A DNA stretch of 64,000 bases from Pristiophorus japonicus (Eukaryota). Under the pieces are notes generated by a model. It had not been told where the DNA came from, made no database searches, and saw only the letters and a list, made by a program, of their open reading frames with translations. Positions 1 to 62,997 of the stretch are shown piece after piece. Numbering within the stretch: position 1 is the first letter of the stretch; every line of letters starts with the position of its first letter. The stretch lies in the NCBI RefSeq assembly GCF_044704955.1, contig NC_091990.1:179800001-179864000 (forward strand). The letters run 5' to 3'. The translations under genes were made by a program, and so were the position numbers.

Positions 1-500
1 ACTATTGTAGTCTGATCATTTGGTACGGTAACAATGTAGTCTGGTCATGTGATACGGTATCATTGTAGTCTGGTCATGTTGTATGGTATCATTGTAATCT
101 AGTCATATGGTACGGTGTCATTGTATCTGGTCATGTGGTACAATACCGTTGTAGTCGAGTCATGTGGTACGGTATCACTGTAGTCTGGTCATGTGGTACA
201 ATACCATTGTAGTCGAGTAATGTGGAATGGTATCACTGTAGTCTGGTCATGTGGTACGGTATCATTGTAATCCAGTCATGAGGTTCAGTATTATTGTACT
301 CTGGTCATACGATACAATATCATTGTAGTCTGGTCATGTGGTACATTATCACTGTAGTCTGGCCATGTAGTATGGTGTCATTGTAATCTGGTCATGTGGT
401 ACAATATAATTGTAGTCTAGTCATGTGGTACAATATAATTGTAGTCCAGTCATGTGGTACAATATCATTGTAGTCTGATCATGTGGTATGGTATCATTGT
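1..500. repeat. 29-bp tandem satellite, block 1 (runs off window start)
   Basis: Repeated unit ~TGTAGTCTGGTCATGTGGTACGGTATCAT; the 29-nt period is measurable in later blocks (e.g. cggtatcatt at 2101 and 2130). Confidence 0.95.
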
Positions 501-2074
501 CATCATCATCAACATCATAGGCAGTCCCTCAGAATCGAGGAAGACTTGCTTCCACTCTTAGAACGAGTCCTTAGGTGGCTGAACAGTCCAATATGAGAGC
601 CACAGTCCCTGCCACATGTGGGACAGACAGTCATTGAGGGTTAGAGAGGGTGGGACAGGTTTGCCGTGCGTTCTTTCCGCTGCCTGCACTTGTTTTCTGC
701 ATGCACTCAGTGATGAGACTCGAGGTGCTCAACGCCCTCCCGGATGCACTTCCTCCACTTAGGGCGGTCTTTGGCCAGGGACCCCAAGGTGTCGGTGGGG
801 CTTTGAGGATGTCCTTGTAACGTTTCCTTTGCCTACCCTTGGCTCGTTTCCCATGAGGAGTTCCGAGTAGAGCGCCTGCTTTGGGAGTCTCATGTCTGGC
901 ATGCGGACAATGTGGCCCGCCCAGCGGAGCTGACCATGCGTGGTAAGTGCCTCAATGCTGGGGATGTTGGCCTGGTCGAGGACGCTAACGTTGGTGCGTC
1001 TGTCCTCCCAAGGGATTTGTAGGATCTTGCGGAGGCATCGTTGATGGTATTTCTCCAGTGACTTGAGGTGTCTACTGTACATGGTCCATGCCTCTGAGCC
1101 ATACAGGAGGGCGGGTATGACTACAGCCCTGTAGACCATTGGCTTGGTGGTAAATTTGAGGGCCTGATCTTCGAACACTCTTTTCCTCAGGTGGCCGAAG
1201 TCTGCACTGGTGCACTGGAGGTGGTGTTGAACCTCCTCATCAAGGTCTGGTTTTGTTGATAAGAGGCTCCCGACGTATGGGAAATGGTCCAGGTTGTCCA
1301 GGGCCGCGCCCTGGAGGCCATTGCTGTGCGGTGAGGACAAGCTGGTGGAGGATCTTTCTCTTACGGATATTTAGCGTAAGGCCCATGCTTTCGTATGCCT
1401 CAGTAAATACGTTGACTATATCCGGGACTTCAGCCTCTAAGTGTGCGCAGACGCAGGCATCATCCGTGTACTGTAGCTCGACGACAGAGGTTGGGGTGGT
1501 CTTGGACCTGGCCTGGAGGCGGCGAAGGTTAAACAGCTTCCCACTGGTTCTGTAGTTTAGTTCCACTCCAGCGGGGACCTTGTTGACTGTGAGGTGGAGC
1601 ATGGCAGCGAGGAAGATTGAGCAGAGGGTTGGAGCGAAGACTCAGTCCTGTTTGACCCCGGTCCAGACGTGGATTGCATCTGTAATGGATCCGTTGGTAA
1701 GGATCACAGCCTGCATATCGTCGTGGAGCAGGCAAAGGATGTTGACGAACCTTTGGGGGCATCCAAAATGTGTGAGGACACTCCATAGACCCTCGCGGTT
1801 GACAGTGTCAAAGGCCTTTGTAAGGTCGAAGAAGGCCATGTATAAGGGCTGGCGCTTATCCCTGCATTTTTCCTGCAGCTGTCGCTCTGCAAAGATCATG
1901 TCCGTTTTGCCCGTAGGGGATGAAATCTGCACTGTGGTTCCGGGAGGAGCTCCTCGGCCACAGGGAGAAGATAGTTGAGGAGAACTCTAGCGACGATTTT
2001 CCCAGTGGCTGATATTTGATAGCAGGGAGATTCCTCTGCCGTTGCCACAGTCGGACTTGTCCCCTTTTTTAAAA
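501..2074 (-). mobile_element. RTE-clade LINE, 5'-truncated, frameshifted
   Basis: Minus-strand RT fragments (FFDLTKAFDTVNREGLW, ELQYTDD, LLYGSEAW, QLRWAGHIVRM); (GAT)n 3' tail at 501-518; candidate TSD tatcattgt (492-500)/taccattgt (2075-2083). Confidence 0.93.
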
Positions 2075-2240
2075 TACCATTGTTGTCCAGTCATGTGGTA
2101 CGGTATCATTGTAGTCTGGTCATGTGGTACGGTATCATTGTAGTCTGGTCATGTGGTACAGTATCATTGTAGTCTGGTCATGTGGTATGTTATCATTTTA
2201 GTCTAGTCATGTGGGACAATATAATTGTACTCTATCGATG
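2075..2240. repeat. 29-bp satellite, block 2
   Basis: Same unit as 1-500. Confidence 0.92.
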
Positions 2241-3129
2241 ACAGAGGTTGGGATGGTCTTGGACCTGGCCTGGAGATGGCGAAGGTTGAACAGCTTCCCA
2301 CTGGTTCTGTAGTTTAGTTCCACTCCAGCGGGGAGCTTATCAACTGTGAGGCGGAGCATGGCAGTGAGGAAGATTGAGAAGAGGGTTGGGGCAATGACGC
2401 AGCCCTGTTTGACCCCTGTCCGGACGTGGATTGGGTCTGTGATGGATCCGTTGGTAAGGATCACGGCCTGCATGTCGTCGTGGAGCAGGCGGAGGATGGT
2501 GACGAACTTTTGGGGGCATCCGAAATGGAGGAGGACGCTCCATAGACCCTCGCGGTTGACAGTGTCAAAGGCCTTTGTCAGGTCGAAGAAGGCCATGTAT
2601 AAGGGCTGGTGCTGCTCCCTGCATTTTTCCTGCAGCTGTCGCGCTGTACAAATCATGTCCATTGTACCCCGGAGGGGACGAAATCCACACTGTGACTCCG
2701 GGAGGAGCTCCTCGGCCACAGGGAGAAGACGGTTGAGGAGGACTCTAGCAACAACTTTCCCAGTGGTTGATAACAGGGAGATTCCTCTGTCGTTGCCGCA
2801 GTCGGACTTGTCCCCTTTTTTAAAGATGGTCACGATCACTGCATCTCTAAGATCTCCCGGCATGCTCTCCTCCCTCCAAATGAGAGAGACGAGGTTGTGT
2901 ATTTGCGCCAGTAATGCCTCTCCGCCATACTTCATTGCTTCAGCAGGAATTCCATCCGCTCCCATAGGCTTGTTGTTTTTTTAGCTGTCTTATGTCCTTT
3001 TCTACCTCGTGCAGTGTTGGGGTCTCAGTGAGGTGGTGGCGGGTCGCATGCTGCGGAATGGAGTCGTGAACACTCGAGTCAAAGGCAGAGTCTCGATTGA
3101 GGAGATCTCGAAGTGTTCCTTCCAGCGTA
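2241..3129 (-). mobile_element. RTE LINE, inverted 5' segment of a twin-primed insertion
   Basis: ORF 2207..2965(-) encodes the RT N-terminal half (GADGIPAE, RGISLLS, ESQCGFRP, GVKQGCVIAPTLF); it ends where the forward segment at 3130 begins. Confidence 0.92.
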
Positions 3130-4134
3130 CTGTCATCGTCGAGCTACAGTACGCGAGCGATGCCTGCGTCTGTGCACACACAGAGGCTGAACTCCGGACA
3201 TTGTTGACGTATTTACCGAGGCATATGAAAGCATGAGCCTTACGCGAAACATTAGTAAGACAAAGGTCCTCCACCAGCCTGTCCTCGCCGCACAGCACTG
3301 CCCCCCAGACATCAAGATCCACGGCGTGGCCCTGGACAACGTGGACCATTTCCCCTATCTCGGGAGCCTCCTATCAACACGAGCAGGCATCAACGACGAG
3401 ATCCAACACCACCCCCAGTGCGCCAGTGCAGCCTTCGGCCGCCTGAGGAAAAGAGTGTTTGAAGACCAGTCCGTCAAAACTGTCACCAAGCTCATGGTCT
3501 ACAGGGCCGTAGTAATACCCGCCCTCCTGTATGGCTCAGAGACGTGGACCATGTACAGTAGACACCTCAAGTCGCTGGAGAAGTACCGCCAGCGATGTTT
3601 CTGCAATATCCTGCAAATCCCCTGGGAGGACAGACACACAAACGTTAGCGTCCTCGTCCAGAACAACATCCCCAGCATTGAAGCACTGACCACACTTGGT
3701 CAGCTCCGCTGGGCCGGCCACATAGTTCGCATGGCAGACACGAGACTCAAAGCAAGCGCTCTACTCGGAACTCGTCCACGGCAAACGAGCCAAAAGCGGG
3801 CAGAGGAAACGTTACAAGGACACCCTCAAAGCCACCCTGATAAAGTGCGTCATCCCCACTGACACCTGGGAGTTCCTGGCCATAGACCACCCTAAGTGGA
3901 GAAAGTGCATTCGGGAGGGCACTGAGCTCCTCGAGTATCGTCGCCGAGAGCATGCAGAAATCAAGCGCAGGCAGCGGAAGGAGCGTGCGGCAAACCAGGT
4001 TCCCTGTCCACCCTTTCCCTCAACGACCATCTGTCCCCCTACCTGTGACAGGGACTGTTCAGCCACCTAAGAACTCATGTTAAGAGTGGAAGCAAGTCTG
4101 CCTCGATCCTGAGGGACTGCCTATGGTGATGATG
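3130..4134 (+). mobile_element. RTE LINE, forward 3' segment of the same insertion
   Basis: Starts at VELQYA(S)DD, continues through the RT C-terminus (ORF 3233..3862), ends in gactgcctatggtgatgatg; TSD actctatcgatg (2229-2240)/actttatcgatg (4135-4146). Confidence 0.92.
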
Positions 4135-4333
4135 ACTTTATCGATGTGGTACGGTATCATTTTAATTTAGTCATGTGATACGTTATCCTTGTAGTCTGTT
4201 CATGTGTTACAATATCACTGTAGTCTGGTCATGTACAAAACCATTGTACTCTGGTCATGTGGTATGGTGTCACTGTAGTTTGGTCATATGGTACAATATC
4301 ATTGTAGTCTAGTCATGTGATACAATATCATTG
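4135..4333. repeat. 29-bp satellite, block 3
   Basis: Same unit. Confidence 0.9.
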
Positions 4334-5223
4334 ACAAACTTCCTCCACCAGCCTGTCCTCACCGCACAGCACTGCCCCCCAGTCAGCAATATCCATGGAG
4401 TGGCCCTGGATACTGTGGACCACTTCCCATATCTCGGGAGCCTCCTATCAACAAGAGCAGGCATCAACGACGAGATCCAACACCGCCTCCAATGCGCTAG
4501 TGCAGCCTTCGGCCGCCTGAGGAAAAGAGTGTTTGAGGACCAGGCCCTCAAAACTGCCACCAAGCTCATGGTCTACAGGGCTGTAGTAATACCCGCCCTC
4601 CTGTATGGCTCAGAGACATGGAACATGTACAGCAGACACCTCAAGTTGCTGGATAAATATCACCAACGATGTCCCCGCAAGATGCTACAAATCCCCTGGG
4701 AGGACAGGTGCACCAACATCAGCGTCCTCGGCCAGGCCAACATCCCCAGCATTGAAGCACTGACCACACTCGATCAGCTCCGCTGGGCAGGCCACATAGT
4801 TCACATGCCAGACACGGGACCCCCAAAGCAAGTGCTCTACTCGGAGCTCCTTCACGGCCAACCAGCCAAAGGTGGGCAGCGGAAATGCTAAAAGGACACC
4901 CTCAAAGCCTCGCTGATAAAGTACGACATCCCCACTGACAACTGGGAGTCCCTGGCCCCAGACCGCCCTAAGTGGAGGAAGTGCATCCGAGAGGGCGCTG
5001 AGCACCTCGGTTTCTGTATGCTCTCGGCGTTGAGACTTAAGCGCAGGCAGCGGACGGAGTGTGCGGCAAACCAGTCCCACCCTCTCCTTCCCTCAACGAC
5101 TATCTGCCCCGCCTGTTACAGAGTCTGTGGCTCTCATATTCGACTGTTCAGCCACCACAGAACTCACTTCAGGAGTGGAAGCAAGTCTTCCTCGATTCTG
5201 AGGGACTGCCTATGATGATGATG
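4334..5223 (+). mobile_element. RTE LINE, 5'-truncated
   Basis: ORF 4331..4891 (FPYLGSLLS...LLYGSETW...QLRWAGH), C-terminal C2H2-like finger (CPACYRVCGSHIRLFSHHRTH), (GAT)n tail. Confidence 0.93.
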
Positions 5224-5332
5224 ACTATCAGTGTAGTCTGGTCATGTGCCACAATATCATTGGAGTCCAGTCATGTGGTACGGTATCATTGTAGTCTAGT
5301 CATGTGGTACATTATCACTATAGTCTAGTCAT
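5224..5332. repeat. 29-bp satellite, block 4
   Basis: Same unit. Confidence 0.88.
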
Positions 5333-5830
5333 TAGCCTCCTTGACCAGGCCAACGTCCCCAACATTGAAGCACTGACCACACTTGATCAGCTCCTCTTGG
5401 CAGGCCACATCGTTCACATGCCAGACACGAGATTCCCAAAGCAAGCGCTCTACTCAGAACTCCTTCACGGCAAACAAGCCAAAGGTGGGCAGAGGAAACA
5501 TTACAGGGACACTCTGAAAGCCTCCCTGATAACGTGCAACATCCCCACTGACACCTGGGAGTCCCGGGCCAAAGACTGCCCTAAGTGGAGGAAGTGCATC
5601 CGGAAGGGCGCCGGTCACCTCGAGTCTCATCGGCGAGAGCATGCAGAAATCAAGAGCAGGTAGCGGAAAGAGCGCGAGGCAAACCAGTCCCACCCACCTC
5701 TTCCCTCAATGCCTATCTGTCCCACCTATGACAGGGACTGTGGTTCTCATATTGGACTGTTCAGCCACCTGAGGACTCATTTTAAGAGTGGAAGCAAGTC
5801 TTCCTCGCTTCCAAGCGACTGCCTATGATG
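5333..5830 (+). mobile_element. RTE LINE 3' fragment
   Basis: Homologous to the 3' 500 bp of the other RTE copies; TSD agtctagtcat (5322-5332)/agcctagtcat (5831-5841). Confidence 0.92.
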
Positions 5831-6360: not shown

Positions 6361-7438
6361 CTTTTGTCTTTTTATTAATTTGTCTGAGCTAAAAGAGTCT
6401 GTACCCACTTGCAGCCTGCAATCTCCATAACAGTGTGGTCCTGTATAGTATTTATGTATTTCAGATCACAGGATACAGCCCTTTTTACAGTTGATACCAC
6501 CTGTTAGTTTGAAATGGGCTTACCGTGGCATGTAGTGCAGTAAGCTGAAGTTCTGGCAGAGTAATTGGATGTGACATTCATGCCTGGGATTCCCCCACCT
6601 GCTGTGCTCTGAATCGCAGTGAGTGAATGAAGTTGGGGACTGACACAATCCCAATGGGAAGGAGGAAAGATTAATAGAGTGTCACCATGGGCCACACACA
6701 CTTTTTAGAGCAATTGGTGGAGATCTGGAGAGCAGTCTTACAGGGAAAGGGAGAAAATGCCTAATAAAGAGACTTCCTCATCAAAAGCTCAAGAAAAACT
6801 GAAGTGTAAAAATATAACCGAGGCTGAACAGTGTCTTGGAGCTGTAACACAGGGCTGAGTTTAGCTGGTGTTGATAAACTGCTTTGAGTTGTGGTTGGTG
6901 ACATCATCTGATGCTTTTGATGTGGTGATGCCGTGAACAGCTTTTAAATTAGGCTAGACCTCATTACAGGGACTGAGTAGAACGTTCCAATCATAGATTA
7001 GCTCAACAGGTGAGTTGAGTATCTTTTGTGTGTTGGGGCAGGGTGGGGTGAAGTTGGAGCTAACTATAGCTCAATGATTGATTGTTTGACAGGTTTCAGT
7101 GGCGATCACTATTGGTTTCTCAGTCAATCTCGCAGCACTGAACTTCAAACTGTTTAGCCTTATATAATGGAAGTTATATTACATGAAATCATACCTGTTA
7201 TCAAGAAGAAAATAGAAAATGCCAGAACTGTACTGCAGGTATGCAGGATCATTCCCTGGAATGCGAAACAATATTAACCTGTCTTTCTCTTTCAGTTCCT
7301 AACTGACCTACCACATATTTCCAATATTTTCCTTCATTTCAGATGGTCGGCATTTGTGTTTTTTTTCTTCTCTGTTTCTACGTGTGCAGTTAGAACCTTC
7401 TGAATTATAACACTCTTGCACGATAAGGGACATGAACT

Positions 7439-12769: not shown

Positions 12770-12900
12770 TGGCAAATGCACTGCCCATCACAGTACTGAG
12801 CCATTCAAACCAGCAAAGGTTCCAGGTTCAATCCCTGATCTGTGCTCTGTTAGCTGGCCTCAGTTGGGGTGATAGGAGGGGCCCTACAATTGATAGCAGT
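12770..12900 (+). mobile_element. Old tRNA-derived SINE (second family), head fragment
   Basis: actgagccat...ggttccaggttcaatccc (B box)...tctgtgctctgttagctg...ctacaattg; related copies near 15740, 40780, 42400, 48830, 51275, 58540. Confidence 0.55.
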
Positions 12901-13339
12901 GCTCTTAAATTCCTTTGTCTGCAGTTTTAGCTGAGGCATTAACTCTTTTGAAATAAGTAAGTTGATGTTTGCCCAAACCAAAATGACATCCTTCTGTGGC
13001 TATGATTATGGGTGTTATCCCTCCTTGTCCTCCTCAATTTCTCAACAAATTTTGATACAGTTGACCATGCCATCCTTCTCTCTGGCTGTTCGACCAGTGG
13101 GATTGTACTTCTGTGGTTTCACTCCGACCTATCTGAACACAGATAGCAATGGCTTCTCTTCCTGTCCCTGCACTGCCATTTCCAGATTCTGCCCAAGGAC
13201 CTGTCCATGGCTTCACTTTGGCCTTATCTATGTTGGCCCATAGTGACATTATTTGCAGGCATGGGGTAAGTTTTCACATGTATGCTGTGACACTCAGCTC
13301 CACCACCACCCCACAATCAGCCCTGTAACCCTTATTGAC

Positions 13340-21712: not shown

Positions 21713-21875
21713 TAATAAAAACAGAAAATGCTGGAAATACTCAACAGGATCATCTGTGGAGAGAGAAACATAGGACTCTGTTTCTCTCTCCACAGATGCT
21801 GCCTGACCTGCTGAGTATTTCCAGCATTTGTGTTTGTTTTTCAAATTTCCAACATCCGCAGTATTTTTCTTTTAT
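21713..21875. mobile_element. Palindromic mini-element made of two inverted Penelope pLTR 3' ends
   Basis: aaaacagaaaatgctggaaatactca...catctgtggagagagaaaca / tgtttctctctccacagatgctgcctgacctgctgagtatttccagcattt; matches 47497-47590. Confidence 0.75.
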
Positions 21876-42577: not shown

Positions 42578-44594
42578 GGGCCTAAGTTTGCAGTCTCGCC
42601 GGGTGCGTATGAAGTGCACATGCACCCGTCAAGGCCTCTCAAAAGCTAGTTCTCAGCGTGTGATGCGCCAAGAACTGGCTTTTCTGATCTGTTAAAATTT
42701 CTTTAGACAGATTCTACGCATCCCCGCAGGAAGGACATCCGCGGGGCAGAGATTGGGCTCTTTGCCCAACTCTTGCTCAACAAATGTCCTTCAAACTTTC
42801 ACACTTGGTAAAAGCATGTTACCAGCGTAACATTTTTAAAACATAGAAAAATTAAATTTAATCATTCATTTTTATATTAAAGACCCTGTCCATTAAGTAA
42901 GTTTATTTTTAACCCTATTAAAAAAAAATTCCCCCAAATAGATATTTTTTCTAAAACATTTAATTACATTTAATCTCAATTAATTCTAAATGTGTGAGTT
43001 TTTTTAAAATTTATTGTGCTGTGTTTCTTGTTTTGGGGGATATTCTCATTGATAGTAATGGGAACTTGCACAAACAGAGTTACCATTATTATTAATGAGA
43101 GTTGTAGATCGTGATTGGTGGTCCAGACCCATGTGATTCCAGCATACGCGTTCGTACGTGGAAACATAGAAACATAGAAACATAGAAAATAGGTGCAGGA
43201 GTAGGCCATTCGGCCCTTCTAGCCTGCACCGCCATTCAATGAGTTCATGGCTGAACATGCAACTTCAGTACCCCATTCCTGCTTTCTCACCATACCCCTT
43301 GATTCCCCTAGTAGTAAGGACTTCATCTAACTCCTTTTTGAATATATTTAGTGAACAACTTTCTGTGGTAGAGAATTCCACAGGTTCACCACTCTCTGGG
43401 TGAAGAAATTCCTCCTCATCTCGGTCCTAAATGGCTTACCCCTTATCCTTAGACTGTGTCCCCTGGTTCTGGACTTCCCCAACATCGGGAACATTCTTTC
43501 TGCATCTAACCTGTCTAACCCCGTCAGAATTTTAAACGTTTCCATGAGGTCCCCTCTGATTCTTCTGAACTCCAGTGAATACAAGCCCAGTTGATCCAGT
43601 CTTTCTTGATAGGTCAGTCCCGCCATCCCGGGAATCAGTCTGGTGAACCTTCGCTGCACTCCCTCAATAGCAAAAATGTCCTTCCTCAGGTTAGGAGACC
43701 AAAACTGTACACAATACTCCAGGTGTGGCCTCACCAAGGCCCTGTACAATTGTAGCAACACCTTCCTGCCCCTGTACTCAAATCCCCTCGCTATGAAGGC
43801 CAACATGCCATTTGCTTTCTTAACCGCCTGCTGTACCTGCATGCCAACCTTCAATGACTGATGTACCATGACACCCAGGTCTCTTTGCACCTCCCCTTTT
43901 CCTAATCTGTCACCATTCAGATAATAGTCTGTCTCTCTGTTTTTACCACCAAAGTGGATAACCTCACATTTATCCACATTATACTTCATCTGCCATGCAT
44001 TTGCCCACTCACCTAACCTATCCAAGTCGCTCTGCAGCCTCATAGCATCCTCCTCGCAGCTCACACTGCCACCCAACTTAGTGTCATCCACAAATTTGGA
44101 GATACTACATTTAATCCCCTCGTCTAAATCATTAATGTACAGTGTAAACAGCTGGGGCCCCAGCACAGAACCTTGCGGTACCCCACTAGTCACTGCCTGC
44201 CATTCTGAAAAGTCCCCATTTATTCCTACTCTTTGCTTCCTGTCTGACAACCAGTTCTCAATCCACATCAGCACACTACTCCCAATCCCATGTGCTTTAA
44301 CTTTGCACATTAATCTCTTGTGTGGGACCTTGTCGAAAGCCTTCTGAAAGTCCAAATATACCACATCAACTGGTTCTCCCTTGTCCACTCTACTGGAAAC
44401 ATCCTCAAAAAATTCCAGAAGATTTGTCAAGCATGATTGACAAATGATGGAAGACATCTTCCTGTGCGCTGCGCAGCGAATGAAGGCCTCAGACTCATCC
44501 TACGTTCCTCCGGGACCAACAGATATTTTTCTAGATTTTTTTCCGGATCAGCGGCGTTCATACGAAGGATGCCTCCAACCGCAATTTCCGGCCC
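42578..44594. mobile_element. Non-autonomous Harbinger-type DNA transposon interrupted by a CR1
   Basis: Imperfect TIRs gggcctaagtttgc (42578) / gcaatttccggccc (44581-44594); flanks att/agt. Confidence 0.6.
43161..44438 (-). mobile_element. CR1 LINE, young subfamily, RT ORF nearly intact
   Basis: ORF 43348..44457(-), 369 aa RT ([19 protein letters not shown]); (TTTCTATG)n tail. Confidence 0.96.
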
Positions 44595-45755
44595 AGTTGC
44601 GTACTTAAAATAGAGAAAGTGGAACTTAGGGATAGACACTAACAACTAGAGAGATAGAGCGGCACCTAACAAAGTTCTGTAATATGGTGAGAAAACTACT
44701 TTTAATATAGAAGGGATTTTATATAGCTCAGCAAGATGTCCCACTTCCCCTGGCAAATTTTTTTTCATTGCATAAATTGATATTCCTTCCTCCTGTTTAG
44801 CAGTGGTGATGGAGGGGAGAGGAGAACATTTTACAGCTGAAATAATCTGGATTCAAATCTATTTTGCAGAAACTTCTACTGTGGACAAGGATACTGTGGT
44901 TAGGGGGGTGGAAATGTCTTGGCAACATTAACTCAGGCTTGCCCTGAGATACTGTAGTTCAACTACCCCCATACCTCACCATATGCAGTTTAGTATCTTT
45001 CTCAAGCCTGCAGGAAAATCATGTTGGCTTAGGAACTGATGACTTTGAATTCTCTGGCTGATATTGTACGCAGTTCAGATGCTGTCTTTAAATCCATATG
45101 TTGTTATTTTTCAAACTGTTTGCATTTTAACTAGGCTTAATTTGCAGCATTTACATCTTGGATAAACTAAAAAAAGACAACTGTTCTGATTGTAGAGAAA
45201 TGCCAGGGAAGTGGATGCTTTTGCATAATTGTTGGATCCACTAATGATCAATCAAGTATAAAGGGGATAATAGGTTTTAACATTCTAATTATTGTTACTC
45301 CCTATTGTTCAGAAGATTTCCCACCTAGCTGCGGGATGGTCTGGTTGATTTTTGTTCTGTAACTCATATTTATTGATGCTGATTTTACTCTAGACTCTAA
45401 TCCCCCTCTCTCTCTCTATTGTAGTAATTCTCATCTTCGTATATTTTATCATTAGATTTCAGTGCTAGCATTTTTTCATTGCTAATGAATCAATTAAATG
45501 GCACCAAGTCTTGAGTGCAATGTAGAATCGTCCACCTCACTATACTCACTGATCCCAACGAGCGTTACAAATCTCATCCAAGGCCAATTTTTGCATGAGT
45601 TTGCCAGTCTTAACTCAAATAGTCACTGAAATAGATTTTAGTTCAATGAATCCAATACACTACTTCCAATGGAAGCAAGGTCCATTATGGGTGATTAAAA
45701 ACAGAAAATTCTGGAAATCTCAGCAGGTCTGGCAGCATTTGTGGAGAGGAAGCAG

Positions 45756-45792
45756 AGTTAACGTTTCGGCTAGGCGACCCTTCGTCAGAACT
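45756..45792 (-). ncRNA. Minimal type I hammerhead ribozyme motif (left pLTR)
   Basis: Minus strand AGTT-CTGACGA-AGGGTCGCCTAGCC-GAAA-CG-TT-AACT; stem II weakened. Confidence 0.7.
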
Positions 45793-47460
45793 GGAGAGTG
45801 TTCGAAAAGAACAGATTCTTAACGAGCACTGAAAGGGGGAGGGGAAGAAAGAACAAAAGGGAAGGTCTGTGATAGGTTGGAAGACAGGAGAGATTCGAGA
45901 GATAAAACGGATGATGGCTCGAATTCAAATGGTAATGCCAGGAATTAGAAAAACATTAGTCAAGATAGGGTGTGAATGGCAGAATAATGATCAGCTGCCT
46001 TTAACTCCACTCACTTCCTCCAAATTAAAGGTATTGCTATGGGAACCCGCATGGATCCTAGCTATGCCTGCCTTTTCGTGGGATATGTAGAACATTCTTT
46101 GTTCCAGTCCTACTTTGGTTCCCTCCCTCACCTCTTTTTCTGGTACATTGATGACTGTATCGGCGTCCTGAACTTGAAAATTTCATTCACTTTGCATCCA
46201 ATTTCCACCCTTCCCTCACCTTCACGTGGTCCATCTCTGACTCTTCCCTTCTCTTCGTCTCCATCTCTGGGATAGGCTTTCGACCAGTATCCACTATAAG
46301 CCCACTGACTCCCACAGCTATCTGGACTATACTTCCTCCCACCCGCATCCTGTAAGGACTCCATTGCATTCTCCAAGTTTCTCTGTCTCTGTCGCATCTG
46401 CTCTGACGATGCCACCTTTCACACTAGTGTCTCTGACATGTTTTCCTTTTTCCTCAACAGAGAATTCCCCTCCATCGTGGTTAACATGGCTCTCGACCGT
46501 GTCCGTTCTATTCCCACACCTCTGCACTCAACTCTTCCCCTCTCTCTCAGAACCATGACAGAGTTCCCCTTGTCCTCACCTTTCACCCCACCAGTCTCCA
46601 ATTTCAACGGATCATCCTCCGCCATTTCTGCCACCTCCAGCGTGATTCTACCACCAATCACATCTTCCCCTCCCCTCCCCTCTCATTCTGAAGGGACCGC
46701 TCCCTCGTGACACCCCGGTCCATTCTGCAGTCACTCCCAGCACCCCCGCCCCTTCCCACGGCACCTTCCTGTGTAAGCGTAGGAGATGCAACACCTGCCC
46801 TTTTACCTCCTCCCTTCCCACTATCCAGGCTCCCAAATACTCCTTCCAGGTGAATCAGCGATTTACTTGTACTTCTTTCAATTTAGACTACTGTATTCGC
46901 TGCTCACGATGTGGTCTCCTCTTACATTGGGGAGACCAAGCGTAGATTGGGTAACCACTTTGCAGAGCACCTCCATTCAGTCCGCAAGTGTGACCCTGAG
47001 CTTCTGGTCACCGGTCACCTCCACTCCACTCCCACTCTGACCTCTCCGTCGTCCTCAGTCTCCTACACTGTTCCAATGAAGCTCGAGGAACAGCAGCTTA
47101 TCTTTCGTTGAGGTACTTTACAGCCTTCTGGACTCAACATCGAGGTCAACAATTTCAGAACGTAACCTCTGCCAATCTTTGTTTCCCTTCCTCCCTCCGC
47201 ACCCCACCCCCCCCCACCCCCCCCCCCCCGCCGCTGCCGAGCCTGTTTCTTTTTTTCTTCTTGTCTCTAATGGCAGCTGGTCATTATTCTGCAATTCATA
47301 CCCTATCTTGACTAATGTTTTTTCTAATTCATGTCATTGCCATTTGAATTCAGCCCATCATCACTTTTGTCTCTCTAATCTCTCCTGCCTTCCCTTTTGT
47401 TCTTTCTTCCCCTCCCCCTTTCAGTGCTTGTTTAGAACGTGTTCTTTGCGAACACTCTCC

Positions 47461-47497
47461 AGTTCTGACGAAGGCTCATCGACCCGAAACGTTAACT
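47461..47497 (+). ncRNA. Minimal type I hammerhead ribozyme motif (right pLTR)
   Basis: AGTT-CTGACGA-AGGCTCATCGACCC-GAAA-CG-TT-AACT: CUGANGA and GAAA core, stem I AGTT/AACT, palindromic ACGT stem III, predicted cleavage after 47493. Confidence 0.8.
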
Positions 47498-48829
47498 CTG
47501 CTTCCTCTCCACAGATGCTGCCTGACCCGCTGAGATTTCCAGCATTTTCTGTTTTTATTCCAGATTCCAGCATCTGCAGTATTTTGCTTTTGTATCAGTT
47601 ATGGTTGACACTACATGGGGAGTGATGCGATGTCCTGGTACATGGACGCCACAATGTGGCAATGTGATGGGAAAACAGTGGTGGAGATCCCCGAGTATTG
47701 ATCGCTCATAGTCATGTTGTGTTATTCTTGATCCTCATAATTGAAGACTCCCTTCAGCAAACTGTGCCAGATTTGATTTGAATGCAGATACGATCAAAGT
47801 TCACAGCTTTGAAGAGAGTATGTTTGAATCAAACCACATATAGTAGCTGAAGGTTTAACTGTAGAGTGAATTTAATGTGTTTCTATAATGAGATTCTGAA
47901 GGAATGGATTTTACTGCTGTTTGAATCTCAGGCACATCCACCATAATTTTTTTATTGGTAGTCAGACAGTTCAGTTGTTAATTGTATAATTGTTTTGACT
48001 ACAACCTTAGCTTCAAAACTCTTATTGAACATTTTTGGCCTTTCTGTGAGAATTTCCTCTTTGTAGTTGGACAATCTGATCAGTGTTAATGAATAATGTG
48101 AGGCTAGGCTCTCAAAGATGAGCCTAGGCTCGCAAAAGTATTACAAGTTTGAAAATGAATCTTTTGGAATTGGATAGTTTACGTAAGTAAAGCAATTGGT
48201 AAAATAAATGCTATCAAGAAAATGGTGACGAAACATTGGATCGTTTTGAACAAGTCTTCTTGAGTTAAATCCAGATTCACTCCAAAGTAGAAATTCTGTA
48301 TGTGATTCTGAACTTTACAAGGTACCACATACAACTGAATCCCTTTTGGATGCAACCTGCCCCTTTAAGAGAAAGCCGTTTAAATATACATCTTTATTAG
48401 ACCATGGTTCTAACCCGTGGAACTGTGGTTGAAAATCATATACCACAGATGAGTCGCTCAACCCACAATAAAAAAAAGACTCCTGATATAAATAGAACAG
48501 ATGGCTGCCAGCTGTGGAATATGACTGCTATAGCACTCGCGAACACGACCAATGTAACCAACAAGCAGTGCTCTGGTTCACGTGGTATCGAATCTTATAC
48601 CACAGTCGGCAGCCATGCACCCCTCGTTAGCCTCTTCAGTTATTCCTTCTTTTTAATTATAAGTGGTGCTATTTTCAAAGTATGAGGAAAGGCGGGTACA
48701 TCAAAGGCCATTCTCTGATAAATTTGAAGAGGAGGGCAATCCATGTCCTACTCGTGCTTTGTCTACAATCGTAAAAAGATTGCAACTGAAAAATCATATC
48801 TGTTCAAAATGGCTGTCTAAGAAACTGCC

Positions 48830-49215
48830 CAATGTGAAACTGAGTCATACTAGGAAGGCCCCAGTTTTACTCCTTAATCTGTGCTCAGTTGGATGAGCTC
48901 ATATAAGGGCTTGGCAGTAATGCTCTAATTAGCCCCATTGCCCCTGAGCTAGGGTGAGAAAAAGAAAGCCATCAAAGTTGCCACTCAGGATTGCCATGTA
49001 GTGTTGGAAAGTGTGCATGTGGATGGATATGTGGTGAAAGCAGGATTGGGTTTGACAGTGATGTCCTCAGTGAAGTAGCCCGCCAACACTCACCATTTCT
49101 GCACCATCATGCATAAAGAATGGCCATTTGGGAACGTACTAAACAGCTGCCAGCACGCACGAAACTATTCCAGAATGAGTCAGTGCCTTCAGCAGGGAAG
49201 GAGAGAAAAGTGAAG
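48830..49215 (+). mobile_element. Old tRNA-derived SINE (second family), near full length
   Basis: actgagtcatac..ggaaggccccag...tctgtgctcagtt...tagcccgccaacactcac...aagaatggccatttggg. Confidence 0.6.
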
Positions 49216-49789
49216 GGAGAAGACTTTTCCTTAAAACCAAGTTCTAGTGGTGTGTTACTATGATGCAACATAACATTCTTGCTGTATTTGAAGCACTAAA
49301 ATGGAGTTAATGACACAAGCTTTAACAAATATGGCTGATTCACTGCAATACTGGGCAATCGAAGACTTTTCATTCGTATTGTTTTGCTCTGAGGTCTCAT
49401 CAGTTTCATTCCTTTCAATGACTAAGTTGTGTTGTATATATTATACAATATATTAAAAATCTTGCATCTGGGTGGAATTCCTGTTAACTTTTCCCATTAT
49501 AAATTCCTCTGCTGACATTTGTACTGGAAATATCTATATAAATTTCTCATGCTGTGATTACACTCTGTGTCTAGCGGAGGCAAATGCAATGCTGCCACTG
49601 GGGGCAACGGTGCAATTACAATGTGACGAGTTTACATCGGCAGTTTCCATTATATATGTGGATATAGGAGTTAATAATGGAAATATAAAAATAAGGAAAG
49701 ATTATTGAACTGTAAAATGGGAACTGAGGTATGTCTGTGGGCCTTGGTCCAATTATACCCTGCACACCAACCATGCTGACTCTTCCCGC

Positions 49790-50850
49790 TCCCACACCAT
49801 TATTTCTGGTGTCCCCAGCCAAGGATCTATCCCTGGCCCCCTCCTATTTCTCATCTACATGTTGCCCCTGAGTGACATCATCCAAAAACACAGCATCAGT
49901 TTCCAAACGTATGCTGACGATACCCAGCTCCACCTCCCCATCAACCCTCTTGGCGTCTCTAAATTGTCCGACTGCTTCTCCGACATCCAGTACTGGATGA
50001 GCAGAAATTTCCTCCGACTTAACATTGGGAAGTAAGAAGCCATTGTCTTCGGTCCCGGCGACTAACTATGTTCCCCAGTCACCCACTCCATCCCTCTCCG
50101 TGGCAACTGTTTGAGGCTGAATCAGAATGTTCACAACCTTGGTGTCATATTTGATGATGAGATGATCTTCTGACCACATATCCATGCCATCACTAAAACC
50201 ATCTATTTCCACCTCCAGAATATTGCCCGACTCTATCCCTGCCTCAGCTTATCTGCTGTTGAAACCCTCATCCATGCCTTTGTTACCTCTAGACTTGATT
50301 ATTCTAGTGCATTTCTGACTGGCCTCCCACATTCTACCCTCCATAAACTTGAGGTCATCCAAAACTCTGCTGCCTGTGTCCTAATTCGCACCAAGTCCCG
50401 CTCACCCATCACCCCTGTGCTCTCTGACCTACATTGGCTCGCAGTTAAACAACACCTCGATTTTAAAATTCTCATCCCCTCCATGGCCTTACCTTCCCTT
50501 TCTCTGCAATCTCCTCCAGCCCTACAAACCTCAGAGATATCTGTGCTCCACCAAATCAGGCCTCTTGAGCGTCCCTGATTATAATCGCTCCACCATTGGT
50601 GGCTGTGCCTTCAGCTGCCAAGGTCCTTAGATCTGGAATTCCCTCCCTAAACCTCTCCTCCTCTCTAACTCTCTTTCCCCCTTTAAAACGCTCCTTGAAA
50701 CTTATCTCTTTGACCAAGCTATTGGCCATCTGTGCTAATATTTCCTTATGTGACTCTGTCAAATTTTGTTTGATAACGCTCCTGTGAAGCACCTTGGGAC
50801 ATTTTACTACATTAAAGGTGATATATACATACAAAGTGTTGTTTTTGTTG
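49790..50850 (+). mobile_element. L2-type LINE, RT C-terminus to 3' tail
   Basis: GVPSQGSIPGPLLFLIYMLP...YADDTQL; LIHAFVTSRLDYS; HITPVLSDLHWL; (TTG)n-like tail. Confidence 0.88.
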
Positions 50851-51055
50851 CTTTACTTGACTCCTCATGTATAAAATGTATATCTGTATATAGATATATA
50901 TTGCATGTATGTGTGTGTAAAAAATCCCTCTAAAACATGACAACTTTGAATTAAAAAAAAAAGACATCAGATGTTCCGACAAAGTTTTAACAATTCACCA
51001 TCTGTAACTTTGAACCTGTCTGTGCATTTTAAACGAAAAATGATGTACTTGTAGA

Positions 51056-51225
51056 CAACGTTCTTCCAAAGCTGTGCGGCTTCATGGCTGCGCAGCTCTC
51101 TGCCGGCCCCACAAAGCCAGGACCGGATTTCCAATGTTACGTTTCACACATGCACAAAACTGTGAATGGGCCCCCGCAGCCCCTTAAAGGGCTCGCGACC
51201 CCAAAAAATATTAGGGGGAACATTG
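51056..51225. mobile_element. 170-bp MITE, possibly hAT-type
   Basis: TIRs caacgttcttccaa / ttagggggaacattg; flanks cttgtaga/cttaaagg (degenerate 8-bp TSD). Confidence 0.5.
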
Positions 51226-51274
51226 CTTAAAGGAGCACTCAAGTAACTTAGCTAATGCAATTGCTGCCTATTTT

Positions 51275-51478
51275 GAAACTGAGCCATCCAGACCAGGAAA
51301 GTTCCAGTTTCGACCTCGAGTCTGTGCTACCATTCGCTGATCTGCGTCAGGCTACCTGAAGGGGCACTACAATTGGTCGCAGTGCCGATGGGGTTGGGAG
51401 GGAAAATATCAGCCAGGAATCATGTTGTCAATCTGTATTCAATAACTCCTAACAGAACAGGCAGATGTAGATAGTACT
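51275..51478 (+). mobile_element. Old SINE (second family), 5' half; 3' half resumes at ~53321-53470
   Basis: actgagccatccagaccaggaaagttccagtttcgacc...ctacaattgg...atcagccagg; continuation aatgtgcacttgggcaaggtattg. Confidence 0.6.
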
Positions 51479-53313
51479 GAATAAAAAACAGAAAATGCTA
51501 GAAACACTCTAAGTCAGGCAGCATCTGTGGAGGGAAACAGAGTTAATGGCCGGAATCTTACCGGCGCTGCGAGTGTGAGTTTGGAGGTGGGTCCATTGTC
51601 AAAATGGCCATGATTGACAGCGGGGTGGAAGTCCGCTCTGAACCCGCCCCCATGTCAGTTTCTCAAGTGTTGGCTCTCCCTTTGGATTGTAGACCCGGCA
51701 TTCCGTGACATGTCAGGCAATTGAACTAGTTAAGAAGTTGCTTAAAGCTATTTAAGCAGCATTTTACCAGGTCCTAACAACCTTTCCAATTTTTTTTGAG
51801 ATTCCCGTCTCTTGGGGATCACGTCAGGTAAGTCTGCCGAGTTCTCGACAACTCTGGATTGGTTTGAATAATTGACAACAGCAAAAGTGCTATAAAAGCT
51901 ACCATTTCACAGCTGTTCAATTTCCAATCTCAAGATTTGGAGCACATCTTTCAGCTTTATGGAGGTTTGAAGTGTTTGCAGTGAACTCTCTAACCAGTGT
52001 CACCTCCTTTGAGCAATCTCTCTCACCATTGACCGATCGCTTCTGTCATCTCAGCTTCACCTGCCATCTGTTCCAGCAGCATGGGTGCCCTTGAAAAAAT
52101 CTCCCCTTGGTCCTCAGAATCCCACCATGAACAGCCCCAACATCAACATCACTAGGCACACCCGCATCACCAACAACAAAACCAACCTTCTGCGCAATCA
52201 CCTGATGTTGCACAGGGCACAGAGAGAGTATCAGTATCCGACCACCAGGGATGGCCTCACCATGGCCAGATTTACTTCACTTGACGCTGTACACCCAGGC
52301 TGCTACATGATGCGCCAGGTTGGCACCACCCCTCACCAAAACCATAAACATCCCGACAATGCCCAAGCCATCCCTTTCACACTCATCACCACTGGGTGGG
52401 AAGGGGCATACCCTTTTGTCTCACCATTCACTGCAACTCACTAAGCCACTTCCAAAGGTGCCCACAGATCTGTCCAAGAAGGCAAAGTGTTGAAAATAAA
52501 GATATCAATGTTTGACAACACATTAACAGAAACGTTACATGAACATTGCATAAAACACCCAAGTGCCTACCCTTGTGTGTTGTTAGTTGTTATGATTGGA
52601 CTAGGATGAGGGTGAGTGTGAGGGGTGGCTAATGAGATTGGAATGTGATAATGTAAATAGAGAGAGAGGGATGGGTGGAGGTGCAAGGTAAGTTGGTGTG
52701 AGCAAGGATGTGCAGGAGTAGGGTAGGTAAGGCAGAGTGATGGGGTCTGATGAGTGGCACAATAGGATGAGGTTTAGTGTGGCTTTGCAGCAAGGTTTCG
52801 TGATCGACTGAGATCATTGAAAGCTTTGTGCCACTGCAGCCAGGTCCTCCTGATGACATCCCTGCTTGTGCCCTCCTCTGCAATGTGCAACCAGGCTGTG
52901 TTGGTCTCCTGGGGAGGTCTCTTCCACCCAGTGGAAGGGAAGAGAACCTCCCTGCGAGTTGTGATTCCCTCCATAAGCATCTGGCGCGAGTCTTGGGAGA
53001 GCCTGGGGGCAGCCGTGCACCATTGTGCACTGTTTGCAGCATCTCAATGCTGTAGAACACTGAGAGCACATTTGTCAAAATTAACTTAGCACGGTCCCTT
53101 TAAGGAAACCGGCTAATGATGTGTCATCAAATGACATCATCAGACCCGCTTCCTTTTAATAGGCCGGGACCTCAGATAACAAGCCCGAGCCTCGTAAAAT
53201 CACTTGGAGAGAGCGGGCTGCAACTCGCACCCCAAGTCGCCCGTCTCACTCCCAACCCGGTATGTAAAATCACAGCCAACGTTTCAGATCGATGACCTTT
53301 CATCAGAACTGCT
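51479..53313 (-). mobile_element. ~105-bp Penelope-derived hammerhead mini-element (51479-51547 + 53278-53313), split by a Harbinger insertion
   Basis: Rejoined minus strand cagttctgatgaaaggtcatcgatctgaaacgttaactctgtttccctccacagatgctgcctgac...agcattttctgttttt; 7-bp TSD tagtact (51472-51478/53314-53320). Confidence 0.82.
51548..53277 (-). mobile_element. PIF/Harbinger DNA transposon, internally deleted, with Myb/SANT-like ORF remnant
   Basis: TIRs ggccggaatcttac / gtaaaatcacagcc; 3-bp TSD aat/aac; ORF 52774..52980(-) MLMEGITTRREVLFP...AWLHIAEEGTS....RTWLQWHKAFNDL is Myb/SANT-like, as in Harbinger ORF2. Confidence 0.82.
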
Positions 53314-54519
53314 TAGTACTACTTAGCAGTCCCAATGGTCGGGTAACCTGTGAACACAGTGTTTAGATGCACACATAAATAATGTGCACTTGGGCAAGGT
53401 ATTGTAGAGTGGTGAGTGCCTGTGGAGTCATAGTAGACTGTGGTTCTGGGCTTTCATAAGAAGAGAAGGATAAATTGTAGGGGATGTGTGAGGAACTGTG
53501 AAAATTAGTGAAATAATACAGCAGTGCGAAGATTTCCATTTGCCTTGCTGTTGGAGACTAACCTACCTTAGCAAAACACCATGTACAGGTGCTAGAGTCT
53601 TGTCTGCTCCTTATCTTTTGACGAACCAGCTCTGTCAGTCTAAATTGGTCCCAATAGACTTGAAATGGCAATAACTTGTGTTTTATTGCAATTTGCTCTC
53701 TCTCTGACTTTACACTACAATCGGGTTTTAAAAAGAAAAATTTACCCCAGTGATCCCTTAAAATATAGAAGACAGTATTGTGTTCAGCAAGGTGTTAGAC
53801 TTTGCAACAATGTAAAGTTCCCATAAACCTTCAATGTCTGTTTGGTATAGGAAGTATAAGATCTAAAAAAGTGCTGCCTCTCTAAAATTCACAGATTTTC
53901 CTCCTCCATGTCAAATATATTTTTTTCCCTTCTTCTCTGCCCTGCTCTCATCATTTCATGGTATTGTTCCCTGAACTGTATATTCATTGAAATCATTTTT
54001 ATTTTAAATAAAACACAGCAGACTCCTTTTGACAACTCTCCAGTACATTCATCCTCCCTCCTGATACATTCATTGATAGGGAATTCATGTCAATGAACCC
54101 TTAAAACACATATTTTTCAAATGACTGTACCTTATTGATTGCAAGGCATGTTTATTTCTTCATTCTGTTTTTATTATTTGAGGCAAAATGAATTTTAATT
54201 TAGTCATAGCAGCACAAATGCAACTGAATGAACAATCTAAAGTTACAGAAGTAACACAATTGCAGGGATTCCAGCACCACTAGGACTGCAGTGGTTCAAG
54301 AAGTTAAGGCCCACACCATAAATGGGGCTGGGCAATAAATGCAGTTTTGTCAGCATTGATTACATTCTGTGAGCAAATAAAGAGATGTTTGAGCATCAAG
54401 TTTATGGGTAACAGATTAGATTATAAAAGGTGATTGCAATGCTCATGTAAATGAGAAAACATGTACCTGTCCAGTATTGTTTCTGCAGTCATTGACTTCA
54501 TTGGCAGGAAGCAGAAAGT

Positions 54520-59870: not shown

Positions 59871-60996
59871 TGAAATCTGTCTCTAATGACCACCATCAGT
59901 GAACTCCTAATTCTAGTTCCTATATAAGTCTAGTTAAGATCTGACTTAAAATTAAAACCTATCTTTTTTCTTTCAAGTGCTAACTAACATGCTGGGCACT
60001 TCCAGTATTTTCTGTTTTATTTCAGATTTCCTTCATTGACAGTTTTTTCCCCAACTCGCATCTGAATTATTGAGTTCCTGTTGAGACTGGCAATGAGGGT
60101 TCCCTCATAAAGTGGTCGTTATGATAGTTTTCATTGTACATGCTATATTATTTTCTTAGAAACGGGAAATTAATTCTTGATCCTGACTAATGTTCGTCCA
60201 CTTCTGATGCCAGCAGTCCATGATTCAGCAGGCAGGGAAGGGGCTGCAGAACTCGAGTCTCCTGCCTCTTTCTTTACCCTATCACTCTCAAGTGCCGGGG
60301 TTTTTGTTGACCCCAAACAGGTCAGCACTGGGACCTGTGGCTGTTGTGTGATGATGGTGCCAGTTCTGGTGTGTTTGGAGAGACCATTAGCAGCAGCAGT
60401 AGCTGTGTCATCAGTGGAGCCTAGGACCAGCTTGTGCTGGTCAATTGCTGCTTAGTTCTGTTCAAAAAAAAACAGGCGCATGACACCTAGTGATTGCTGC
60501 TTTGTCTGCCCTTGGTAACATTTCAGACTTCTTGTCTGCTCAAGACTGATTTTATGCTTGGAAAATGAGCCCTATCTGAGTATGATAATCATCAGTATGG
60601 ATACTGTATAGAGAATGCCAACGGTGGGAACCAACATTACATTGAAGACCTTAATCTGTCATTGTGCTATGGAATCTGGTACAGAAATAGCTAAGATTTT
60701 TTTTTAATGAAAAATCAGCGTGAACAAGAACAGATGTTGATGTGCTTAACTTTATCTGTTGTGATCCCATGTGCAGGGGTCAAGAAGGGCAAATGCTAGG
60801 AATTGTGCTTAACATGCCAATGACAAGATAGCCTGTGCAGCAATTTCCAGAGTTAGAGCTTAAATAAAATCTTCCATTTAAAATACTTTCAGTGCTTAAA
60901 TACATTCCACAAAGCCACAAGGTTTGCATGACAGATGTTTAAATGTCACATAACAGAGCTGAAGGAACCATGGCAAGCAGTGTGTATTCCTCCCCA

Positions 60997-61902: not shown

Positions 61903-62997
61903 AGTGTATTTACTCACTAAGCCTACAGCTTAATGAACCCTTGAGCTGAATTAAAGTATATCCTCCTAACGAGGCACACTAAGACCCAGACTATCTGCTG
62001 AGTAGAAAGATCTTGTATTTCAAGGTGGATTTGAATTTGGTTCAAAATTCAATTCATTTTGGATTTTGCCTGTGGCAAATTGACAATGCTGAATTTGTAC
62101 CCATCAATGCATGCCGATATATATTGTGCCAAGAGCTGTGTATAAAATACTCATTGACACATGATAATAAGTCTATAGTGAGTGATCCAGCAGGTTTTAT
62201 GCTGGAATGGGACACAAAGAACTAATTCAAGCATGAAGTGAGAGCTGCTGCACACATTACCAGAGCTATTCATACATGGTGGGGGAGAACTCTCTCTCAA
62301 CATTTATTTTACATAAACAGTTAAGAATTTTGAGTTTGTTTTTGAAACATTGCTAGTTTGTTCAGTTCTTTTACACTGACCCTTAGGAATTCAGAATTTG
62401 TTCTACAATTCAAATATCATTCACAGGCATTGATGACTATTGCCAGATAAAGGAGAATATCAGCCATTTTCTCCGTGTGCAGTATTTAATCATTTGCAAA
62501 AACTGAAGCTAATACACCTTTAATTTGATGTGCATCGGTCATTTAAAAAGGAAGACATTTCCTATGGTCAAGTAGCCTGCCAACAGTCACTGTGTAGATT
62601 CAGACATGAAGAATTAACACTTGGGCAAAACTTCCATTGGGTATTATCTCAGCGGTGTCTTCAGAAGATTAGAGCAGAAAGTGGAAGATAGCAACAAACA
62701 AAAAAAATCAGACAGCATCGTAAATAGGAAAAAAATATGAGACTTCACTCAAAATATAGATTCAGCCAAGGTGGGGATTTTTATGATTTTGATCCTATTT
62801 AATGACCCTTTCATTGATTGCACAGTTCCGAATCTGAAGCTCCAAACCCAACAATGCATGAGACACAATTACATTAGGTGCTGATGCTGTTAACCTCTTT
62901 AGGCCATTGATTCCTGAAAAATGTAGAACTGATTGTACACTCACTCCAAGATGGTGTTGACAAGGTGATGACTACCTGAACAAATAGGAAATGTTTC

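Follow-up and report, generated by a model that had tools for sequence, protein, structure and literature searches.

A short hammerhead-bearing Penelope-like insertion split by a Harbinger-type element in Pristiophorus japonicus

In the genome of Pristiophorus japonicus, a unit of about 100 bp that carries a minimal hammerhead motif is interrupted by a DNA transposon at or beside its predicted cleavage site. This raises the question of whether the unit belongs to a small family of its own or is a fragment of a larger element. The original prediction, made from the letters of the window (the whole stretch of 64,000 nucleotides that was analysed, positions 179,800,001 to 179,864,000 of NC_091990.1), suggested a non-autonomous family defined by its ribozyme. 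We consider it probable that the unit is an extremely 5′-truncated insertion of an ordinary Penelope-like retrotransposon, which was later split by a Harbinger element. The nesting of the repeats, the two target-site duplications, and the homology of the unit to the ends of an element with RT and GIY-YIG are all directly observed.

Three nested repeats at one locus

Three repeats are nested at 51472–53320: a SINE-like repeat contains a Penelope piece, which in turn contains a Harbinger-type element. The features are as follows.

51270–51471, plus strand: 5′ half of the older SINE-like repeat (blastn, 74% to 12795–12902, E 9e-11), with a B-box-like motif seen by eye near 51305–51317
51472–51478: left copy of the 7-bp target-site duplication TAGTACT, overlapping the 3′ end of the Penelope piece by 2 bases
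51479–51544, minus strand: 3′ part of the Penelope end-piece, with the 3′ strand of stem I and the downstream hairpin region (84% to 47492–47560, 81% to 45694–45761)
51545–51547: left copy of the Harbinger 3-bp duplication, AAT, likely AAC with CpG-type decay (alternatively TAA at 51544–51546; the register is inferred from the junctions)
51548–53277: PIF/Harbinger-type DNA transposon of 1,730 bp, read as non-autonomous, with weak TIRs (10/14) and a single copy in the window
52804–53007, minus strand: remnant of the Myb/SANT-like DNA-binding gene of Harbinger (Pfam PF13873, E 8e-06, 26.2 bits against a cut-off of 21.7)
53278–53280: right copy of the 3-bp duplication, AAC, which is the predicted GUU cleavage triplet on the minus strand
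53278–53311, minus strand: 5′ part of the minimal type I hammerhead (5′ strand of stem I, CUGAUGA, bulge, stem II, GAAA, palindromic ACGU, U17), 85% to 47460–47493
53312–53313: two extra bases between stem I and the duplication, matching neither the pLTR copies in the window nor the duplication, and either untemplated or from an unseen subfamily
53314–53320: right copy of the 7-bp duplication TAGTACT
53321–53435, plus strand: 3′ half of the SINE-like repeat (75% to 62561–62628)

The unit is thus bounded by the 7-bp direct repeat that had been predicted. When 51548–53277 and one 3-bp copy were removed by script, the rejoined minus-strand unit between the TAGTACT repeats measured 102 bp, a little less than the 105 bp first estimated, and rejoining restored both the hammerhead core and the Penelope 3′ hairpin, as originally described. 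Its 5′ end had been placed right at stem I; the boundary does lie within two bases of it, with 53312–53313 intervening. An exact repeat of at least 7 bp within 5 × 5 offsets of two random window points was found in 30 of 20,000 draws, and a looser scoring of the same test gave 0.58% of 5,000 draws.

Two window copies, near 48810 and 62300, align with the empty site of the SINE-like repeat colinearly from one side of the junction to the other; their scores are 147 and 149.5, while the best of 100 shuffles for each reached 113 and 109.5 respectively. The copies near 12780 and 58600 exceeded their own shuffles as well, and in blastn each of them matched on one side only. The right half alone exceeded 200 of 200 shuffles against two of the three copies tested, and the approximately 100 bp directly left of the junction, taken alone, did not rise above shuffles against any of the three. 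The three proposed levels of nesting within an older SINE are therefore borne out by the alignment of the empty site, and the order of insertion is SINE before Penelope piece before Harbinger.

The hammerhead motif and the site of the Harbinger insertion

On the minus strand, the 5′ strand of stem I (53311–53307) is followed by CUGAUGA (53306–53300) and one bulged A, then by stem II (53298–53286), which includes one G–U pair and closes on a 3-nt loop. After stem II come GAAA (53285–53282), a C and the triplet GUU (53280–53278), and beyond the insert the 4-bp partner of stem I. The core is complete: a pair check of the rejoined unit found every conserved core position present. Stem I has 4 bp and stem II 5 bp, and stem III is replaced by the palindrome ACGU at 15.2–16.2. 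The predicted cleavage position is internal, about 34 nt into the unit, so ribozyme cleavage can make neither of its ends; the idea that the ribozyme sets the boundaries of the unit was rejected on this ground.

This organization resembles that of the minimal hammerheads described from metazoan PLEs, which have a 4-bp stem I, a bulged base before stem II, a palindromic ACGU, no stem III and a location in the pLTR, and which occur as dispersed single motifs from truncated PLEs (PMC4209133). The published motifs are mostly single and are described as “probably related to truncated PLEs” (Cervera and de la Pena 2014, PMC4209133). They usually have G–C at 10.1–11.1, whereas the split unit has A–U here and is in addition interrupted by Harbinger; G–C is present in both long window copies. 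The same paper describes the G10.1–C11.1 pair as highly conserved, without its being required by the descriptor, and in its accessible part neither cartilaginous fishes nor 5′-end positions are among the analyses.

The Rfam comparison that had been proposed as a check returned no hammerhead match at the gathering score in the whole window, and no hammerhead family at E up to 10 in 45600–53500 with the insert in place. As even the two intact copies went unmatched, Rfam is blind to the minimal form. The double-hammerhead fold of the unit has a predicted energy of −5.7 kcal/mol compared with −22.6 kcal/mol for the dimer optimum, and the unit folds no better than its shuffles (z −0.42), both being weak tests for hammerheads. 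Lacking a stem III of its own, the hammerhead of the split unit would be expected to cut only as a dimer or with the help of protein. In vitro, the hammerhead activity of Penelopes is reported to be low (PMC4209133). We infer that the hammerhead is a passenger inherited from the Penelope parent, and in this copy it is now interrupted.

The inserted element has weak terminal inverted repeats, in which 10 of 14 bases match. No match to a DDE transposase was found in the 14 frames scanned, and it is read from its sequence as a non-autonomous derivative. There is no second full copy in the window, where a similar end at 44594 is truncated. In its presumed 3-bp duplication, its weak TIRs, its Myb/SANT-like remnant, its length of about 1.7 kb and the lack of a DDE match it resembles the non-autonomous PIF/Harbinger derivatives that retain only MADF/Myb genes (PMC13668399); it differs from them in that its TIRs are decayed and that its duplication, in the simpler register, is AAC rather than TWA.

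The insertion had been placed exactly at the GUU triplet. This holds in the simpler reading, in which the duplication is AAC and the left junction would have undergone a CpG-type C>T change, but the duplication is imperfect (AAT on the left and AAC on the right). In a second possible register the duplication is TAA, the element ends begin with TGGC, and the right end has lost two bases. Harbinger elements usually target TWA (PMC13668399), which AAC does not match. The unit holds four TWA triplets, two of which fall at the cut site because the dimerisation palindrome is followed by TTAA. The apparently exact hit is therefore likely to be a coincidence, and a single event among tens of thousands of targets calls for no further cause; the special meaning given to the position of the insertion is thus not upheld. 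We also rejected a transposase that recognises the RNA cut site, given that a transposase acts on DNA and that no position at 47490–94 appears among the 24 loose-end positions listed from the sequencing runs described below.

Related Penelope ends in the window and in sequencing runs

A longer Penelope-like element within the window, outside the nested locus, served as the comparison.

45694–47593, plus strand: 5′-truncated Penelope-like element of 1.9 kb, with RT and GIY-YIG
45694 to about 46000: inverted tail-less pLTR of this long copy (arms 45693–45865 and 47388–47560, at 91%)
45997–47156: decayed RT and then GIY-YIG frames (tblastn with homologues, E 8e-44 and 4e-16)
47460–47497: intact hammerhead in the 3′ pLTR of the long copy, which has the tail

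Aligned to the two ends of the long copy, the 102-bp unit gives 86 identities, 13 mismatches and 3 gaps with one, and 81, 18 and 3 with the other. At both ends of the long copy the hammerhead region extends upstream into the pLTR, so that only one of the three hammerhead-bearing copies in the window starts at stem I. The long copy is itself flanked by a direct repeat matching at 9 of 10 bases, a few bases off its end (chance 7 in 2,000), and a flanking duplication therefore marks no special family. The order of RT and then GIY-YIG in the parent was confirmed by RT-bearing and GIY-YIG-type protein homologues. Among the decayed Penelope frames of the window, none of seven was matched by Pfam and none of six by NCBIfam, and two of three homologue searches found nothing. 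The Atlas look-alikes of these frames are RT clusters and, weakly, GIY-YIG clusters, and serve as leads only.

A profile search of the window with nhmmer gave eight matches, comprising the two halves of the unit, the two ends of the long copy and four others. Of the four others, two are faint remnants and two form an inverted pair at 21717–21870 that lacks the hammerhead. No tandem arrangement of the unit was found at the locus or among the eight matches. Pattern scans for the Penelope end gave no matches in metagenome contigs, viral contigs or prokaryote genomes.

Contigs from four of 24 listed sequencing runs, representing four organisms, were aligned at 80% likeness to the intact end at 47250–47669, which belongs to a subfamily neighbouring that of the split unit and differing from it. 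The Penelope end is very abundant, since 41,765 contig pieces fit it in the best-matching run (X1), and 6,600, 16,843 and 14,280 in the three others. Loose 3′ ends cluster at 47559 in all four runs (508, 124, 210 and 243 contigs), and a second cluster lies at 47593–95 (430, 314 and 406 contigs in X1, and 107 in X11). The flanks at these ends are long and diverse, with an agreement of 0.35–0.39 and a median of 255 letters. The two clusters are about 35 bp apart, which matches the tail-less and tailed classes expected from two RT start sites; two such start sites, and an optional tail of 30–40 bp, are described for Penelopes (PMC11167929, PMC8557442). The split unit ends at the place matching 47559, that of the tail-less class.

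The 5′ side is less clear-cut, as contig alignment cannot separate true 5′ ends from subfamily divergence. In X1, six of the eight long pieces listed begin upstream of stem I. The summed depth in X1, which in a contig alignment is no copy number, is 418–438 thousand at 47362–47389, 519–795 thousand over the hammerhead and 2.8–3.3 million over the hairpin; it is a profile rising towards the 3′ end, with upstream depth of the same order as that over the hammerhead. Depth rises about 3-fold from 47446–59 to 47460–73 (178 to 519 thousand), in a region where the reference differs from most contigs. None of the six loose-end positions listed for X1 falls at stem I, which proves little because 1,066 further positions lie beyond the 24 listed.

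Among the listed positions of the three other runs, X5, X6 and X11, loose ends occur at 47458 (114, 172 and 160 contigs, agreement 0.53–0.55, median 16–27 letters). Judged by their common consensus, these probably represent mostly the pLTR of another subfamily and not unique flanks; the reference pLTR subfamily is largely missing from these runs, and alignments must therefore stop at stem I. Two neighbouring positions come near to what unique flanks give: 47460 in X5 (47 contigs, agreement 0.40, median 118 letters) and 47459 in X11 (75 contigs, agreement 0.43, median 54 letters). Five of the 32 pieces listed (17, 22 and 23 of X5, 29 of X6 and 14 of X11) start at 47457–61 and have 95–610 unlike letters before that point. 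We did not accept the loose ends before 47505 (128–544 contigs in each run) as true 5′ ends, since their consensus continues into the hammerhead.

Origin of the short unit

If the unit is a truncated insertion, the Penelope endonuclease would have nicked the target within the older SINE-like repeat, as published Penelope biochemistry suggests. Priming would then have used the inner (tail-less) start, overlapping the target by two bases, and reverse transcription would have proceeded on uncleaved RNA, because both sides of the cut site were copied. Copying would have stopped, or been joined off, about 100 nt later, with the 7-bp duplication as the result. Harbinger would have landed later, likely by chance and helped by the TTA/TAA at the hammerhead palindrome. 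The earlier suggestion that Penelope RT/GIY-YIG mobilised the unit is in keeping with these steps and is presumed here. The 5′ end of the unit lies within two bases of the first base of stem I, which counts against plain truncation.

A close comparison is Poseidon PAc of Anolis carolinensis (Frangieh et al. 2024, PMC11167929). Like the window parent, it has RT with a C-terminal GIY-YIG and a hammerhead followed by a hairpin; like the window elements, it has two classes of 3′ end about 30–35 bp apart, and, as proposed for the unit, it is inserted from uncleaved RNA. Its target preference is AT-rich. Hammerhead cleavage is dispensable for its insertion in vitro and hammerhead mutants still insert, and no RNA ends were seen at the hammerhead cut in Anolis (PMC11167929). 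Penelope copies that lack terminal repeats are also reported to have target duplications (PMC2377424).

A rather unlikely alternative to truncation is that autonomous Penelope transcripts preferentially yield short copies, whose 5′ ends would be fixed at stem I by RNA processing. RT would start at the hairpin near the 5′ end of the RNA and run off about 100 nt later, at a boundary formed by a splice acceptor or a transcript start beside stem I, giving a recurring size class with no master copy. Part of the loose ends at stem I do look diverse. Directly before stem I, both window copies have a stretch of pyrimidines that closes with CAG, and in the three other runs the loose-end consensus before stem I is CTAAC followed by a T run; we take the former to resemble a splice acceptor and the latter a branch point with its acceptor. 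Published elements offer parallels, in that RT of the Anolis element starts internally, about 110 nt into the ORF (PMC11167929), and the Penelope intron of Drosophila virilis ends at the 5′ end of helix I (PMC4209133). Against this, splicing joins an upstream exon and creates no end, the unit retains the CAG of the putative acceptor, and an upstream intron alone would explain why subfamily homology stops at stem I, without any true ends.

The family first proposed would be a self-standing, non-autonomous one of about 100 bp, a mini-retrozyme that has source loci of its own and depends for its mobility on Penelope proteins acting in trans; we regard this as highly improbable. The clean 7-bp duplication, the intact core and the boundary at stem I are what it would predict, and non-LTR retrozymes (PMC7229834; Li et al., bioRxiv 10.64898/2026.07.22.740005) are likewise non-coding, have a type I hammerhead, derive from pLTRs, can be about 100 bp long and occur also as monomers; vertebrate examples of 51–98 bp exist, again derived from pLTRs (bioRxiv 10.64898/2026.07.22.740005). 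Retrozymes are, however, defined by tandem hammerhead units and circular RNA (Cervera and de la Pena 2020, PMC7229834), and this locus holds one colinear copy with no tandem. In a monomer released by cleavage, the first base would follow GUU and the sequence would be circularly permuted, whereas the unit is colinear with its parent and has the cut inside it. Only one of the three hammerhead-bearing window copies has the short form, the other two continuing into the pLTR; there is no promoter within the unit; and the folding energies, weak tests as they are, lend no support. Least probable of all, in our view almost negligible, is that the unit was once longer and was trimmed by a later deletion, the 7-bp repeat being due to chance or repair. 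Other window copies exceed this SINE by about 20 bases around the junction, and the two bases at 53312–53313 are unassigned; both points would fit such a reading. An exact 7-bp repeat at both boundaries is nevertheless rare by chance, as the random draws show, and on either side of the unit the SINE continues in order.

Truncation of an ordinary Penelope is thus the reading that we prefer, and its meaning is modest. Solo minimal hammerheads from truncated Penelopes have already been published, and most likely there is no new mini-element family here. We see no sign of function in the locus, a single decayed repeat with three levels of nesting, whose only use is to order the ages of repeats. 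No report of short shark Penelope copies starting at stem I was found in the mostly open-access literature.

More would follow if the 5′ ends of short copies proved fixed: with so many copies in the genome, counting ends could then test what Penelope hammerheads do in vivo. We think it unlikely that the Penelopes of cartilaginous fishes shed discrete insertions of about 100 bp with 5′ ends defined by processing of the RNA at the hammerhead, one class starting at stem I, as the site of a splice acceptor or transcript start, and another starting at the ribozyme cut. Were such processing-defined classes real, tens of thousands of genomic fossils would record the processing of Penelope RNA in vivo, and would make it possible to test directly if cleavage by the minimal hammerhead ever occurs in cells. 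The inverted pair at 21717–21870 may illustrate a class that starts at the ribozyme cut.

Penelope-derived copies in the window

Further copies of Penelope sequence were identified:

45694-47593, truncated Penelope-like element whose 5' repeat is inverted and tail-less, whose RT and GIY-YIG frames are decayed, and whose 3' repeat has a tail
7207-7283, faint old remnant of the Penelope end that the hammerhead unit represents (nhmmer E 0.017)
59974-60024, another faint, old remnant of that end (nhmmer E 0.00013)

The truncated element is flanked by a direct repeat matching at 9 of 10 positions (45685-45694 and about 47599-47608). Separately, two Penelope 3' ends without the hammerhead core lie head to head in inverted orientation at 21717-21870. 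In this single case (n = 1) each arm ends about 2 bases or less from the predicted hammerhead cut site, and the pair could be a trace either of cleaved RNA or of rearrangement at the GTTAAC palindrome.

Stem I edge and depth across the Penelope end

At 47445-47463 and 45790-45810, stem I of the hammerhead has at its 5' edge a pyrimidine run and CAG, a putative splice-acceptor signal judged by its sequence. In another subfamily, seen in contigs of three public sequencing runs (X5, X6 and X11) whose alignment to the Penelope end stops before 47458, the acceptor-like sequence preceding stem I is CTAAC and a T run. The same coincidence of acceptor with stem I edge is reported for the Penelope intron of Drosophila virilis (PMC4209133).

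In X1, the best-matching run, summed depth (which is not copy number) is approximately 4-fold higher at the downstream hairpin than at the hammerhead core (47488-47557), whereas the rise in the other three runs is only 1.0-1.8-fold. The rise in X1 may reflect many Penelope copies that lack the core, or that have a divergent stem II.

Other repeats

Two repeats of other types were also found:

44440-44594, second Harbinger-like or MITE-like end, truncated by a LINE-like RT remnant; the minus strand reads GGGCCGGAAATT
500-5830, large, GC-richer nested inverted-repeat array, in which the arms are about 85% similar and the longest measure 460 bp
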